Source: Escherichia phage KKE7M
Sequence record: PQ356295.1
DNA length: 64,000 nucleotides
Reading direction: 5' to 3' (one strand)
Shown here piece after piece: positions 20,360 through 23,223 of the stretch. The notes beneath the pieces were generated by a model that saw nothing but the letters and a program-made list of their open reading frames with translations, did not search any database and was not told the DNA's origin. The stretch's first letter is position 1. Every line of letters starts with the position of its first letter. A program made the position numbers and the translations under genes.

Positions 20360-20435
20360 TGGTCGTGGTAAACGGAGTCGAACCGTTGTTTCTCGATTAT
20401 CGGTCGAGTGTACTAACCATCTGTACGATACCACA
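20360..20435 (-). tRNA. tRNA, anticodon GAU (Ile) by hand fold
   Basis: 7 bp acceptor, T-arm AACGG-TTCGACT-CCGTT, anticodon loop CCGATAA, CCA encoded; C at position 33 is unusual. Confidence 0.5.
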
Positions 20436-20440
20436 ATAAT

Positions 20441-20523
20441 TGGCAGCAAGGTGAGGAATCGAACCCCTTGATCTATGGTTTGGAGCCATATTGAGTACCA
20501 TACTCTTTTAAATCTACCCAGCT
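20441..20523 (-). tRNA. tRNA-like, anticodon CCA (Trp), atypical D region
   Basis: clean anticodon arm TATGG-CTCCAAA-CCATA and T-loop TTCGATT, but 26 nt between acceptor and anticodon stem and imperfect acceptor pairing. Confidence 0.35.
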
Positions 20524-20581
20524 ATGAGTTCCTTGAAGTGTCAATGTAACTTAATCATTACACCAGAAGGGAGGTATTTAG

Positions 20582-20660
20582 TGGAGGCGGGAATCGGATT
20601 TGAACCGATGATCTCCAGCATATGAAACTGGCGAGGACGACCAGACTCCTCTATCCCGCG
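20582..20660 (-). tRNA. tRNA-Met (CAU), initiator-like
   Basis: acceptor CGCGGGA with 1-72 mismatch as in bacterial initiator tRNA, loop TTCATAT, T-loop TTCAAAT, CCA encoded. Confidence 0.6.
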
Positions 20661-20675
20661 CAATCTGTAGTAATT

Positions 20676-20760
20676 TGGTAGCTAAGGTGAGACTCGAACT
20701 CACAATCCCTTGGGGCAATACGTTCTAAGCGTATCGTGTATACCATTCCACCACTTAGCC
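20676..20760 (-). tRNA. tRNA-Leu (UAG)
   Basis: class II fold with long variable arm, anticodon loop CTTAGAA, T-arm GTGAG-TTCGAGT-CTCAC, CCA encoded. Confidence 0.65.
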
Positions 20761-20837
20761 ATAATAAGTACACCACTGTAAGAAGCCTCAATGTGCTATT
20801 GACAGTTAACCAAGTCTACTCCTTGGATGGTGTTATT

Positions 20838-20912
20838 TGGTGCAGAGAGATGGTAACGATCCATCCTTTCTACCTTTTCAGGGTAGCACTAATCCGTCTC
20901 AGCTATCTCTGC
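20838..20912 (-). tRNA. tRNA-Phe (GAA)
   Basis: perfect acceptor GCAGAGA/TCTCTGC, anticodon arm CTACC-CTGAAAA-GGTAG, unusual T-loop ATCGTTA. Confidence 0.6.
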
Positions 20913-20917
20913 AAATT

Positions 20918-20993
20918 TGGTCAGTGCGGCAGGACTCGAACCTGCGACCTGAAGCGTCCAAGGCTCCCACGCTACCAACTGCGCTACGCACTG
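20918..20993 (-). tRNA. tRNA-Pro (UGG)
   Basis: perfect 7 bp acceptor, anticodon loop CTTGGAC, T-loop TTCGAGT, CCA encoded. Confidence 0.65.
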
Positions 20994-21000
20994 TAAATCT

Positions 21001-21075
21001 TGGCTGGAGATCTAGGAATCGAACCTAGTCATCACGACTTCAAAGGCCGTTGCCTTCCCACTAGGCTAATCTCCA
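21001..21075 (-). tRNA. tRNA-Gln (UUG)
   Basis: perfect acceptor TGGAGAT/ATCTCCA, anticodon loop CTTTGAA, T-loop TTCGATT, CCA encoded. Confidence 0.65.
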
Positions 21076-21127
21076 ATAAAACTAAAAATCACTTAAAAAG
21101 AACCGCTAGAGTTTGAAGGAGAAAACC

Positions 21128-21154
21128 ATGAGCGAAAAGAGAAATTTTCTCTAG
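21128..21154 (+). other. 8-codon mini-ORF (MSEKRNFL) with strong RBS inside an 8 bp inverted repeat
   Basis: GAAGGAGAAAACC-ATG; flanked by CGCTAGAG (21104-21111) and CTCTAGCG (21149-21156); lies between two tRNA genes. Confidence 0.25.
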
Positions 21155-21174
21155 CGATTCCATTTAAATAATCT

Positions 21175-21249
21175 TGGAGCGAGTAACAGGACTTGAACCT
21201 GCACCTGGAGGGTGGAAACCTCATATGCTACCATTAACACTATACCCGC
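21175..21249 (-). tRNA. tRNA-Gly (UCC)
   Basis: acceptor GCGGGTA with one G-U, anticodon loop TTTCCAC, T-loop TTCAAGT, CCA encoded. Confidence 0.6.
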
Positions 21250-21260
21250 TTAACAATATT

Positions 21261-21290
21261 ACTCTAACATATTATTAGCCCCTTTGTCAA
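21261..21290 (-). promoter_or_regulatory. promoter candidate for tRNA transcript (TTGACA N18 TAGAGT), overlapping a hairpin
   Basis: minus-strand TTGACA at 21290-21285, TAGAGT at 21266-21261, about 12 nt upstream of the tRNA-Gly 5' end; hairpin 21277-21296. Confidence 0.35.
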
Positions 21291-21304
21291 GAGGCTTTTG
21301 ATAT

Positions 21305-21634
21305 TTATTTTAAAATAGTAGATGCACCACGTCTGTTTAGATATGCAACAGTAAAGTCCAAATCACCTATTTCTTCAGGTTCCCACTGACCTTCTAAGCC
21401 ATAGCAAGAACAATGATATGCGTGTACTTCATAAAACAGAGATGTTTTCATATCATAAAAATAAACGTGAGATTCACCTTCATAATATGCACAGTCATAA
21501 GTGGCAGAAAGAATTACAATGTTATCCTTATCTAACTCTACTTCATAATATCTTTCAACATCTTCGATATCATCAAAACCATCGAAAACATTGATGTTAA
21601 AATATTTCTCTAACTCTTTTTCTGTCACATACAC
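21305..21634 (-). CDS. hypothetical protein embedded in tRNA cluster
   Basis: 109 aa acidic ORF with AAAGGAG RBS (GTG start likely); no recognisable domain. Confidence 0.45.
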   Translation of the reverse strand: MYVTEKELEKYFNINVFDGFDDIEDVERYYEVELDKDNIVILSATYDCAYYEGESHVYFYDMKTSLFYEVHAYHCSCYGLEGQWEPEEIGDLDFTVAYLNRRGASTILK

Positions 21635-21651
21635 TCCTTTAGAGTTAAAAT

Positions 21652-21726
21652 TGGTGCTCCCACAAGGACTCGAACCCTGATAAGTTGCTTACAAGGCAAC
21701 CGTAATAGCCGTTATACGATAGGAGC
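21652..21726 (-). tRNA. tRNA-Thr (UGU)
   Basis: acceptor GCTCCTA/TGGGAGC, anticodon arm GTTGC-CTTGTAA-GCAAC, T-loop TTCGAGT, CCA encoded. Confidence 0.6.
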
Positions 21727-21732
21727 AATACT

Positions 21733-21809
21733 TGGACTCGACAGGATTCGATACCTGCAATTCCAGAAGCCTATTGGCGACTGGGGGTTTACCTTAACTC
21801 TACAAGTCC
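21733..21809 (-). tRNA. tRNA-like element without a canonical anticodon arm (possible pseudo-tRNA)
   Basis: 7 bp acceptor GGACTTG/CGAGTCC and T-arm with 8 nt loop TATCGAAT, but the 44 nt core does not fold into D and anticodon arms. Confidence 0.3.
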
Positions 21810-21816
21810 ATAATTC

Positions 21817-21901
21817 TGGCGATGGATCAAGGATTTGAACCTTGCTAGAACTTTCGTTCACGGATTAACAGTCCGTCGCCCAACCACTAGGCCAATCCAT
21901 C
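21817..21901 (-). tRNA. tRNA with anticodon GUU (Asn) but class II-like 15 nt variable arm
   Basis: perfect acceptor GATGGAT/ATCCATC, anticodon arm ACGGA-CTGTTAA-TCCGT, variable arm GAACGAAAGTTCTAG, T-loop TTCAAAT, CCA encoded. Confidence 0.5.
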
Positions 21902-21908
21902 TTTAATT

Positions 21909-21995
21909 TGGTGCAGGTAGTTGGACTCGAACCAACGAAGCCCCGAAGGGCAAGAGATTTACAGTCTCCAGCAATTGCCGCTATGCGATACCTAC
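21909..21995 (-). tRNA. tRNA-Tyr (GUA)
   Basis: class II fold, anticodon loop CTGTAAA, long variable arm with GCCC/GGGC stem, T-loop TTCGAGT, CCA encoded. Confidence 0.6.
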
Positions 21996-22000
21996 GTGTT

Positions 22001-22075
22001 TGGTACATCGTGAAGGATTCGAACCTTCGCTCCCTTGATTAAAAGTCAAGTGCCTTACCGCTTGGCTAACGATGC
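22001..22075 (-). tRNA. tRNA-Lys (UUU)
   Basis: acceptor GCATCGT/ACGATGT, anticodon arm CTTGA-CTTTTAA-TCAAG, T-loop TTCGAAT, CCA encoded. Confidence 0.65.
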
Positions 22076-22435
22076 ATACTCTTTACACCACCGTGTATGT
22101 CCAGCATAAGCCTTTGTACTATGGAATACTGCTCCGCAAACACACACCGTGGTTCTAATTCTGTTTCCCATGTCTTGGGAAATTCTTGTCTTCTTCATGT
22201 GACAAGCATGACACAAAAGTTGACATTTGGCAAGTTCTTCTTGCCATTTAGCCTCCGAACATGAACTCATTCGACTAATATAAAACTTCTTCTCGCTTGA
22301 ATCTTTATGATCAAATTCCAAGTCATCTACAGACCCACAATTAACACATTTACCTCCAAGCTGGAGGATTGCGGAAGCTCTTCGCTTCTGCCACCGAGTT
22401 TTCATGTATTCCCGCATATAATCATTACTTGGCAT
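22055..22435 (-). CDS. HNH homing endonuclease
   Basis: CVNCGS...EFDHKD...LLCHACH motif set; AGGAGG RBS; 3' end overlaps first 21 nt of tRNA-Lys. Confidence 0.7.
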   Translation of the reverse strand: MPSNDYMREYMKTRWQKRRASAILQLGGKCVNCGSVDDLEFDHKDSSEKKFYISRMSSCSEAKWQEELAKCQLLCHACHMKKTRISQDMGNRIRTTVCVCGAVFHSTKAYAGHTRWCKEYASLAKR

Positions 22436-22582
22436 ACATCCTCCTCGTATAAATTATCTTTAAAATAGCCAGTGTTTGCGGCACTTAGCTATGAAGTATT
22501 GGGGTATCGGTAAAGTGGTTGCCGCCACTTGCCGAAGATTTACTCTGCTAAAGTAAGAGTACAAGCTACATTAAAGATAACT

Positions 22583-22668
22583 TGGCGGTAGATGTAGGAC
22601 TTGAACCTACACGCCGTTTCCGACGACAGTTTAGCAAACTGTTGTGGCTACCATTTCACCAATCTACC
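22583..22668 (-). tRNA. tRNA-Ser (GCU)
   Basis: perfect acceptor GGTAGAT/ATCTACC, anticodon arm ACAGT-TTGCTAA-ACTGT, long variable arm, T-loop TTCAAGT, CCA encoded. Confidence 0.65.
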
Positions 22669-22713
22669 ATTTTTAATTATTCAAAACAACCTGAATCTGT
22701 TACTAATTGAATT

Positions 22714-22803
22714 TGGAGGAAGATAATGGAGTCGAACCATCACCGTATCGCTACAATGGGCCAGGGTTCAAACCTGGTTGCGCACCGCTGCGCCCTACCT
22801 TCC
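22714..22803 (-). tRNA. tRNA-Ser (UGA)
   Basis: anticodon arm CCAGG-TTTGAAC-CCTGG, long variable arm, T-loop TTCGACT, CCA encoded. Confidence 0.6.
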
Positions 22804-22867
22804 CGTTATCATACTTTAAATCTAACATAAAACTATCTTGCTTGTCAAGTAGTTTTTAAAAACTTTT

Positions 22868-22949
22868 TGGCCGGGGTGACAGGATTCGAACCTGCATACT
22901 CCAATTACTCGGTTAACGCCTGATTAGAAGTCAGGTGAGATACACCCCG
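22868..22949 (-). tRNA. tRNA-like, anticodon UCU (Arg), apparently lacking a D arm
   Basis: perfect acceptor CGGGGTG/CACCCCG and canonical T-arm, but only 7 nt between acceptor and anticodon stem (CCTGA-CTTCTAA-TCAGG) and 23 nt before the T-arm. Confidence 0.4.
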
Positions 22950-23030
22950 TTTTCACAGTAACTATAACAAAAAACTAAGTAAATGTCAAGATATTTTTAC
23001 TAAAATTATTATTTAAATTGAAGCCTAGGT

Positions 23031-23116
23031 TGGTGCAAGTGGAGGGATTCGAACCCTCAATCATTTAAGCGTTGCGTTTTAAGCACAATGTGTATCACCA
23101 ATTCCACCACACTTGC
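23031..23116 (-). tRNA. tRNA-Leu (UAA)
   Basis: perfect acceptor GCAAGTG/CACTTGC, anticodon loop CTTAAAA, long variable arm, T-arm GAGGG-TTCGAAT-CCCTC, CCA encoded. Confidence 0.65.
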
Positions 23117-23147
23117 ATATAGGAGATGCATAGCACCTCCTTTTAAA

Positions 23148-23223
23148 TGGTGGTTCCCCAGGGTTACAATCCCTGCCCTCGACACTTATGAGGTGTGCGC
23201 TCTCGTCAGTGAGCTATGGAACC
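23148..23223 (-). tRNA. tRNA with anticodon CAU (elongator Met or Ile2), unusual T-loop
   Basis: anticodon loop CTCATAA, D-stem GCTC/GAGC, T-loop ATTGTAA between CAGGG/CCCTG, CCA encoded. Confidence 0.5.

Follow-up and report, generated by a model that had tools for sequence, protein, structure and literature searches.

A predicted tRNA-Arg(UCU) with a rearranged, non-cloverleaf core in Escherichia phage KKE7M and in phages of three bacterial phyla

Analysis of a 64,000-nt stretch of Escherichia phage KKE7M (PQ356295.1; the whole stretch is referred to as the window) reveals an 82-nt gene at 22868–22949 on the minus strand that most probably encodes a genuine elongator tRNA-Arg(UCU), a decoder of AGA codons, with a topology other than the cloverleaf. 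The best reading of the gene is a tRNA of new topology, in which equivalents of the D stem and the D loop are predicted to be present at other places in the order of the molecule. The original prediction, made from the letters of the window, had described a tRNA-like gene with an arginine anticodon and without a recognisable D arm, and had proposed that it was a tRNA with a truncated D arm, a decoy derived from a tRNA or a fold that could not be resolved by eye; the last of these three options is the one that the comparative analysis bears out.

The position i of the RNA corresponds to position 22950-i of the window, and the minus strand read from 22949 to 22868 is CGGGGUG UAUCUCA CCUGA-CUUCUAA-UCAGG CGUUAACCGAGUAAUUGGAGUAU GCAGG-UUCGAAU-CCUGU CACCCCG G CCA. 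Several elements are those of an ordinary tRNA, as had been noticed. The acceptor stem is perfect, with seven Watson-Crick pairs between CGGGGUG (nt 1–7, 22943–22949) and CACCCCG (22872–22878), and the T arm GCAGG-UUCGAAU-CCUGU (22879–22895) has a canonical loop and one G.U pair, followed after the acceptor strand by the discriminator G73 and the encoded CCA (22868–22871, as read from the sequence). The anticodon arm CCUGA-CUUCUAA-UCAGG (22919–22935) has a 5-bp stem and a 7-nt loop that contains U33, the anticodon UCU (22926–22928) and A37; this loop is identical to the Sf14 and host tRNA-Arg(UCU) loops tabulated in PMC12482277, and the anticodon would read AGA and, probably, AGG through wobble. 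The spacing is also as described: the anticodon stem is separated from the acceptor stem by exactly 7 nt and from the T stem by 23 nt.

The major difference from an ordinary tRNA lies in the core. The absence of a D arm is correct in that there is no local D hairpin, whereas a D-stem equivalent does exist: C11-U12-C13 (22937–22939) pairs with G40-A41-G42 (22908–22910) in a short helix, termed helix X, which encloses the anticodon arm and carries an 8-nt bulge, CGUUAACC (22911–22918), on its 3' side, between the anticodon stem and its own 3' strand. The connector U8-A9-U10 (22940–22942) provides the canonical positions 8 and 9, and U10 is proposed to lie opposite U43 in a non-Watson-Crick arrangement. 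The D-loop-like segment UAAUUGGA, U43-A44-A45-U46-U47-G48-G49-A50 (22900–22907), is located 3' of helix X and holds the proposed equivalents of A14, A15, G18, G19 and A20; it continues via the linker G51-U52-A53-U54 (22896–22899), the variable-loop equivalent, into the normal T arm, and the last U of this linker is the proposed partner of A45 in a Levitt-type 15:48 pair. The term "truncated" is therefore inappropriate, since the D-stem and D-loop equivalents are both present, elsewhere in the order. Relative to a canonical gene, the predicted order has the D loop and the anticodon arm exchanged around one strand of the D stem.

The family layout comprises, in its 5' half, a 7-bp acceptor stem, U8-A9-U10, a helix X 5' strand of 3–4 nt with a further 0–1 nt, and the anticodon arm and, in its 3' half, a bulge of 2–12 nt, the helix X 3' strand, UAAYUGGN, a linker of 4–6 nt and the T arm. 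The bulge differs by subfamily (CGUUAAYN, NGAAA, AGUA, AU and others), and the connector is UAU in 103 of 106 distinct sequences and UAC in three, with UAG in phage PA11, a near-constancy that is partly enforced by the GTATC of the search pattern. The conserved UGG lies 3' of the anticodon arm throughout the family, where its GG resembles G18-G19 and would make the elbow contact. CCA is encoded in about half of the members. In members without it (L009, L011, L014, L023 and L029), the 5' leader can pair with the 3' trailer, which lengthens the acceptor helix to 9–10 bp and may reflect either precursor processing or a longer stem in the mature RNA.

The pairing of nt 11–13 with nt 40–42 was suggested by a copy in a Streptomyces phage, in which CGC...GCG stands in place of CUC...GAG. 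Two alignments were used to assess this helix: A1, the subfamily of the window gene, which was obtained from a pattern scan of viral contigs (at least 60 loci, 43 distinct sequences), and A2, a more diverse set of 106 distinct members. In A1, each of the three positions is paired in 43/43 sequences, with 13 and 7 double changes (12:41 is UA in 30, AU in 8 and GC in 5; 13:40 is CG in 36, UA in 4 and GC in 3). In A2, the positions are paired in 106/106, 106/106 and 96/106 sequences, with all four Watson-Crick types represented, and RNAalifold recovers helix X unaided on this alignment. Because the alignments could be circular, raw pattern matches filtered for the acceptor and T stems alone were also counted (168 independent phage homologues); 168/168 and 158/168 are paired, with the types GC, CG, UA and AU, whereas the shuffled control predicts both helix X pairs in 35+-5 of 168. 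The pairing of nt 11–13 with a second GAG (nt 49–51) was rejected, as it is broken in 13 and 3 sequences without compensation.

The remaining helices behave similarly. All seven pairs of the acceptor stem covary, with 99% of cells paired across the 43 and the 106 sequences, the anticodon stem covaries in both alignments, and the T arm is paired in 99% of cells with a stem that also covaries. A covariance model of the rearranged-core family built here, R1, scores the window gene at 101 bits, in a comparison in which ordinary tRNAs reach at most 36 bits; over all comparisons, the members score 46–102 bits, as against 38 bits or less for ordinary tRNAs. At the level of comparative sequence analysis, the predicted secondary structure and its conservation are established. 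For the tertiary contacts, the Levitt-type 15:48-like pair is A:U in 144 cases, G:C in 2, A:C in 1 and G:G in 1, which weakly suggests the A45:U54 pair in the window gene.

Standard tools respond poorly to this fold. The window, which derives from a phi92-like Escherichia phage (Justusliebigvirus; 95–99% identity to EC_OE_11, phi92 and relatives), contains a tRNA array on the minus strand at 20360–23223 with 16 genes including the rearranged tRNA-Arg, of which ARAGORN finds 15; it makes no call at 22868–22949, either on the whole window or on the local region. Fourteen Rfam tRNA matches are present in the window, and the one at 22871–22949 (minus strand) is the lowest-scoring of them, with 38.6 bits, yet lies above the gathering threshold of 29. 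Infernal fits the gene to the tRNA model solely by deletion of the D arm, with 4 nt aligned against 15 in the model. In an Rfam E-value scan of the gene region, non-tRNA matches are at chance level only (PreQ1 and others; E >= 0.6).

The identity elements of the family are consistent with aminoacylation by two synthetases. In bacteria, the arginine identity set consists of A20 in the D loop, the main determinant for arginyl-tRNA synthetase (ArgRS), together with C35, U/G36 and A/G73, and isoleucine identity involves A73, the anticodon and the D-loop positions 16/20/21 (PMC9976931). Among the matches listed from scans without an anticodon constraint and from covariance-model searches, at least 209 distinct genes were parsed. 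The base after GG is A in 135 of the listed genes, all of which have arginine anticodons (UCU 100, CCU 21, ACG 11, CCG 2 and UCG 1; a GCG case was also encountered outside this tally), and is U (73) or G (1) in the other 74, with the anticodons UAU (63), GAU (7) and CAU (4). All 74 of these listed isoleucine-box members have A73; across the family, position 73 is G in 63, A in 49, U in 19 and C in 4. The base after GG thus tracks the anticodon as in the published determinants, which indicates that it behaves as position 20. The first three isoleucine members surfaced unsought through the covariance model rather than through a pattern, and the later anticodon-free scan served as a prospective test of the base-after-GG rule, which held. 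These isoleucine members refute the view that arginine alone uses the fold.

In the window gene, A50 follows G48-G49 and would correspond to position 20; with C35, U36 and G73, the whole arginine set is represented, and the arginine/UCU assignment of the original prediction is supported. The D-loop equivalent additionally has the AA..GGA spacing of the D loop of the canonical Sf14 tRNA-Arg, AAACGGAUA. Both bulge subfamilies (CGUUAA.. with the linker GUAU and NGAAA with the linker YACAU) hold arginine as well as isoleucine members, which indicates at least two independent identity switches, and each switch implies one anticodon change, C35 to A35, in addition to A20 to U20 and A73. The restriction to arginine and isoleucine may reflect descent from a single rearranged tRNA-Arg. 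The four rearranged CAU genes have U after GG and A73, and are therefore probably tRNA-Ile2 rather than tRNA-Met. tRNA-Ile(UAU) is found in many phages in both canonical and rearranged form (L198, L200, L170, L156 and many other loci), and could read AUA without the lysidine pathway that is usual in bacteria.

The distribution of anticodons points to use in translation. Rearranged and canonical tRNA-Arg genes share an anticodon in 2 of the 44 non-redundant loci that hold both forms, compared with 17.6+-2.8 expected, and none of 20,000 permutations gave a number as low as 2. In one example (L137), rearranged CCU and UCU genes accompany canonical ACG and CCG genes. By gene content, the predicted rearranged tRNAs occupy isoacceptor slots that canonical tRNA-Arg genes leave empty. 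Additionally, in the Shigella phage Sf14 (Mooglevirus), tRNA-Ile(GAU) is followed 249 nt downstream by a canonical tRNA-Arg(UCU) and then by tRNA-Ser(UGA); the Felixounavirus KhF2 has a rearranged gene at the very locus of the canonical tRNA-Arg(UCU), with flanks that are ~93–95% identical up to both gene borders. The two predicted folds are interchangeable cassettes at one locus. The Sf14 gene annotated as Arg_TCT was itself considered as a rearranged candidate and rejected, since it is a canonical cloverleaf. In the window, AGA accounts for 31.5% of the arginine codons in open reading frames, or 13.7 per 1000 codons, and no arginine tRNA other than the rearranged gene is found among the ARAGORN calls in the window. 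AGA codons are rare in E. coli.

These observations bear on the possibility that the RNA is a decoy or sponge that acts outside translation and titrates or misleads a host tRNA-targeting nuclease or another tRNA-binding factor; the candidate targets would be anticodon nucleases of the colicin D or PrrC/RloC type and the retron, OLD and Schlafen effectors. The anticodon loop equals that of the host tRNA-Arg(UCU), as would that of a bait, and the unusual body could be a poor substrate for translation. Phage tRNAs have also been proposed to counter tRNA-depleting defences (PMC10264068), and the host tRNAs cut by retron Eco2 include tRNA-Arg. However, a decoy should accompany a functional tRNA with the same anticodon, which is contrary to the anticodon distribution, and the rearranged gene is located in the orthologous slot of a canonical tRNA-Arg(UCU) and is the arginine tRNA of a window rich in AGA. 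A decoy would also need no identity elements outside the anticodon loop, whereas A20/U20 and A73 track the anticodon perfectly, and the intact 7/5 acceptor-T domain and the CCA are retained. With empty slots filled, an orthologous locus replaced and synthetase identity rules obeyed, the decoy proposed originally is considered improbable.

A second alternative is a class II-like tRNA that lacks a D arm and uses the 23 nt for a long variable arm, CCGA-GUAA-UUGG, or else a cloverleaf that starts or ends elsewhere, as in the tRNA-Leu(UAA) annotation of phage 121Q. The hairpin is favoured by single-sequence folding and appears in the minimum-free-energy fold of the window sequence, and 121Q and EGole annotate the homologues as tRNA-Leu. 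The covariation refutes the hairpin: 38–41/46–49 has one pair broken in 22 of 43 sequences with a single double change, the hairpin is absent from the RNAalifold predictions on both alignments, and other subfamilies have just 2–5 nt in this region. A class II tRNA would, moreover, have a D arm. For a standard cloverleaf with a different 5' boundary, which was sought with ARAGORN and Infernal, none was found; the absence of an ARAGORN call for the gene, in scans of the window and of the local region, indicates that there is none with different boundaries, and the UAA "anticodon" would fall in a 4-nt loop. Both versions of this alternative are thus very hard to credit. A decaying tRNA pseudogene, left without a D arm by deletion and rearrangement, is scarcely credible, since, despite the missing ARAGORN call and the majority of GenBank records being unannotated or covered by a coding sequence at the gene, the discrete 77–85-nt unit is conserved in phages of three bacterial phyla, with compensatory changes in all four helices (pseudogenes do not covary), strictly conserved loops and linkers and a promoter-like site of its own.

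The fold that is read here as a rearranged tRNA is widely distributed as a discrete 77–85-nt gene, with at least 209 distinct genes in phages of Proteobacteria, Actinobacteria and Bacteroidota. The 82-nt unit is conserved without its flanks, at 82–100% identity, in about 255–263 phage records of unrelated families; in BLAST searches with flanks, unrelated phages share the unit alone, at 82–86% identity. The carriers in BLAST include Felixounavirus, the 350-kb Asteriusvirus 121Q/PBECO4 group, T5-sized Klebsiella phages, Vequintavirinae, and Erwinia and Streptomyces phages. The hosts of the carriers comprise Enterobacteria, Pseudomonas (podophage PA11), Streptomyces and Bacteroides (crAss-like Kehishuvirus), in addition to many uncultured viral contigs, and the Streptomyces phage BoomerJR holds one arginine and one isoleucine copy. 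No match to the rearranged element is found in 5,426 complete E. coli genomes or 72,556 plasmids. With the specific pattern in 185,579 species genomes, 16 of 25 stretches among the matches listed are genuine members; 15 of the 16 lie in contigs of metagenome-assembled genomes, of which 5/6 checked with ARAGORN hold phage-like tRNA arrays, and one member adjoins an integrase at a tRNA-Pro site. The census by pattern and model scans is a lower bound, and the identities among the matches listed are arginine and isoleucine. ARAGORN missed 163 of 166 rearranged copies, and in GenBank the gene is left blank, overlaid by a coding sequence or labelled tRNA-OTHER, tRNA-Undet or tRNA-Leu.

HNH homing-endonuclease genes adjoin or overlie the rearranged gene in unrelated phages, at L002:1091-1600 (Roth37), L336:169-621 (PA11) and in several Felix-like records, and the annotation of the PA11 enzyme gives a similarity to F-TflI, an endonuclease of the T5 tRNA region. 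The occurrence of an 82-nt gene at 82–90% identity between phages with unrelated flanks could be due to homing.

A comparison with canonical tRNA-Arg(UCU) (Sf14, NC_042075 15811-15887; E. coli argU) reveals the same CUUCUAA loop, 7/5 acceptor-T domain and T loop. A/G73, CCA, the GGA motif that supplies position 20 and the place in phage arrays are also shared, as presumably is the task of reading AGA. In the canonical tRNA-Arg, the D stem GUUC/GAGC and the D loop that it closes lie 5' of the anticodon arm, whereas the rearranged stem closes the anticodon arm itself, with the D-loop-like segment 3' of the stem; the 8-nt bulge is additional, and the usual variable loop of 5 nt is missing. The D-arm-less tRNAs of metazoan mitochondria, such as tRNA-Ser(AGY), and the engineered E. 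coli "mini HisT" likewise have a short connector and no local D hairpin, and they indicate that translation can tolerate non-cloverleaf tRNAs (PMC7609411, PMC11551756). However, these RNAs have no equivalent of the D stem or D loop, lose the D/T contact, adopt a Y shape and often work with co-evolved factors. The phage family differs from them in its covarying D-stem equivalent, GG-bearing D-loop equivalent and canonical T loop, and in being carried by phages, in which it would have to work with unadapted host enzymes. In textbooks and recent primary work, natural arm-less or rearranged tRNAs have been regarded as confined to mitochondria, and all known bacterial tRNAs as cloverleaves (PMC11551756).

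Allo-tRNAs, tRNA-Sec and the (8/4) phage tRNA-Ser/His (PMC5389517) are also non-canonical, located in phage clusters and missed by standard tools. These types alter helix lengths (8/4, 9/3 or a long D stem) while the cloverleaf order is kept, whereas the rearranged tRNA has the standard lengths 7/5/5 and an altered order; the window gene, with 7/5, does not have an allo-tRNA or tRNA-Sec configuration (8/4, 9/3 or 8/5). Circularly permuted and split tRNA genes, as in Cyanidioschyzon merolae and Nanoarchaeum, have a different order of segments, and processing restores the canonical cloverleaf. The rearranged gene has no sign of such processing; the change lies inside the core and would be carried over into the mature RNA. 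The tRNA-like domains of tmRNA and of the tRNA-like structures of plant viruses are L-shape mimics with non-canonical connectivity, and tmRNA lacks a D stem while keeping the contact between D loop and T loop; these domains, which are not elongator tRNAs, have no decoding anticodon arm or have pseudoknotted acceptor stems. In the literature searched by motif sequence and descriptive phrases, to which subscription-only literature did not belong, no description of the rearranged topology was found, and it is not described in a review of non-canonical tRNAs (PMC7609411), the allo-tRNA report (PMC5389517), a virus-wide tRNA survey (PMC6409571) or a 2024 study (PMC11551756).

Upstream of the gene, a sigma-70-type promoter-like site, TTGACA-17-(TG)TATAGT, is present at 22961–22989 on the minus strand; this consensus match, 11/12 with an extended -10 TG, is the best in the tRNA region and ends 12 nt upstream of tRNA nt 1. 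Near-consensus sites of this type precede individual tRNA genes of the array at 22819–22848, 21261–21290 and 22961–22989 (all minus strand), each with TTGACA, a spacer of 17–18 nt, TAnAnT and an upstream TG, which suggests that the array contains several separately transcribed units.

Other members of the array are also atypical. The tRNA-Ser(UGA) at 22714–22803 (minus strand), which adjoins the rearranged tRNA-Arg, is missed by the general tRNA model of Rfam and matches best the tRNA-Sec model, with 35.3 bits, under the gathering score. Inspected by eye, its acceptor stem has 8 bp, its T stem has 4 bp and its D stem is long, and it looks like the (8/4) allo-type tRNA-Ser described for phages by Mukai et al.; its counterpart in the phi92 record is marked as a pseudogene. 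tRNA-Ser(UGA) is also found beside the rearranged tRNA-Arg in 121Q and near the rearranged gene in Felix-like phages. At 23148–23223 (minus strand), ARAGORN calls a tRNA-Met(CAU) that has no Rfam tRNA match at E <= 0.01. Its T loop, AUUGUAA, is not canonical, its D loop lacks GG, and its acceptor stem has an A.G mismatch at the base; the phi92 record labels the counterpart "hypothetical tRNA", and the element may be another atypical tRNA or a tRNA-like RNA. For the phi92 tRNA-Lys (L001:2176-2251), ARAGORN gives "tRNA-???" with a two-base anticodon (tt), and the orthologue in the window is a normal tRNA-Lys(UUU), so that the anticodon loops could differ by one base, or the phi92 record could contain a sequencing error.

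In Sf14, an unannotated, conserved tRNA-like sequence at L338:16055-16135, which has a homologue in KhF2 (L006), lies between tRNA-Arg and tRNA-Ser. It has an acceptor stem, a T arm, CCA, the anticodon loop CUCCAAA (Trp) and an oversized D region, and matches tRNA models weakly (21.5 bits to tRNA-Sec, E = 0.045). The 26 annotated tRNAs in the Sf14 paper cover 19 amino acids, and Trp is not among the tRNAs annotated in the Sf14 stretch examined.

If the window gene is an elongator tRNA, its fold may be envisaged as follows. Helix X, the U10.U43 layer and nt 14 would stack on the anticodon stem to give an arm of ~10 layers, like that of the D stem, nt 26 and anticodon stem of a canonical tRNA. 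U8:A44, A45:U54 and the docking of G48-G49 on the T loop would rebuild the elbow, so that the L shape would be kept and A50 would be shown to the host ArgRS as A20, along with C35, U36 and G73. Transcription would start at its own promoter, RNase P and 3' exonucleases would trim the RNA, and, once charged with arginine, it would read the abundant AGA codons of the phage, for which the matching E. coli tRNA is scarce.

Several points weigh against this elongator tRNA and its proposed fold. RNAalifold does not recover helix X on the subfamily alignment of the window gene, with its 8-nt bulge, and nearest-neighbour folding of the window sequence does not find it; a 3-bp helix that closes an 8-nt bulge would depend on tertiary contacts. 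The tertiary mapping (U8:A44, A45:U54 and GG/T loop), in turn, rests on invariant bases, the sole covariation being two of three changes at the 15:48-like pair, and since the search patterns fixed GTATC, GTAA and TGG, the apparent invariance is partly due to construction. In addition, the two loci mentioned above do hold both forms with the same anticodon. Finally, E. coli tolerates the engineered tRNA without a D arm poorly because PNPase degrades it (PMC11551756), which indicates that unusual cores can be unstable.

A more tentative proposal extends to the whole family. It is possible, although on balance doubtful, that the rearranged genes represent a second, non-cloverleaf design of elongator tRNA, for arginine and isoleucine, that is widely exchanged among phages, works with unmodified bacterial ArgRS, isoleucyl-tRNA synthetase (IleRS), EF-Tu and ribosomes, and is kept because the rewired core evades tRNA-targeting nucleases. 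Such nucleases, which would recognise the canonical geometry of the D arm and anticodon stem, could belong to host defence or to the host-shutoff enzymes of the phage itself. Evasion through a changed body is attractive because the anticodon loop is unchanged from that of the host, and the published idea of evasion uses mutations in the loop.

Because standard tools miss these genes and their records are blank or mislabelled, published phage tRNA repertoires and codon-adaptation analyses systematically lack decoders of the Arg(UCU/CCU/ACG) and Ile(UAU/GAU) types. If the RNAs are functional, the statement that all tRNAs of bacterial systems are cloverleaves would need to be amended, and bacterial translation would routinely accept a differently wired core. 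The family would then be a natural experiment on the parts of the core that are needed by ArgRS, IleRS, EF-Tu, modification enzymes and the ribosome, and would offer a compact natural alternative scaffold for the engineering of orthogonal tRNAs. In the conflict between phage and host, it is a candidate for structure-based escape from tRNA-targeting immunity; if true, evasion by rewiring of the core, which leaves the anticodon loop and the identity elements untouched, would be a route of immune evasion distinct from the proposed mutations of the anticodon loop.

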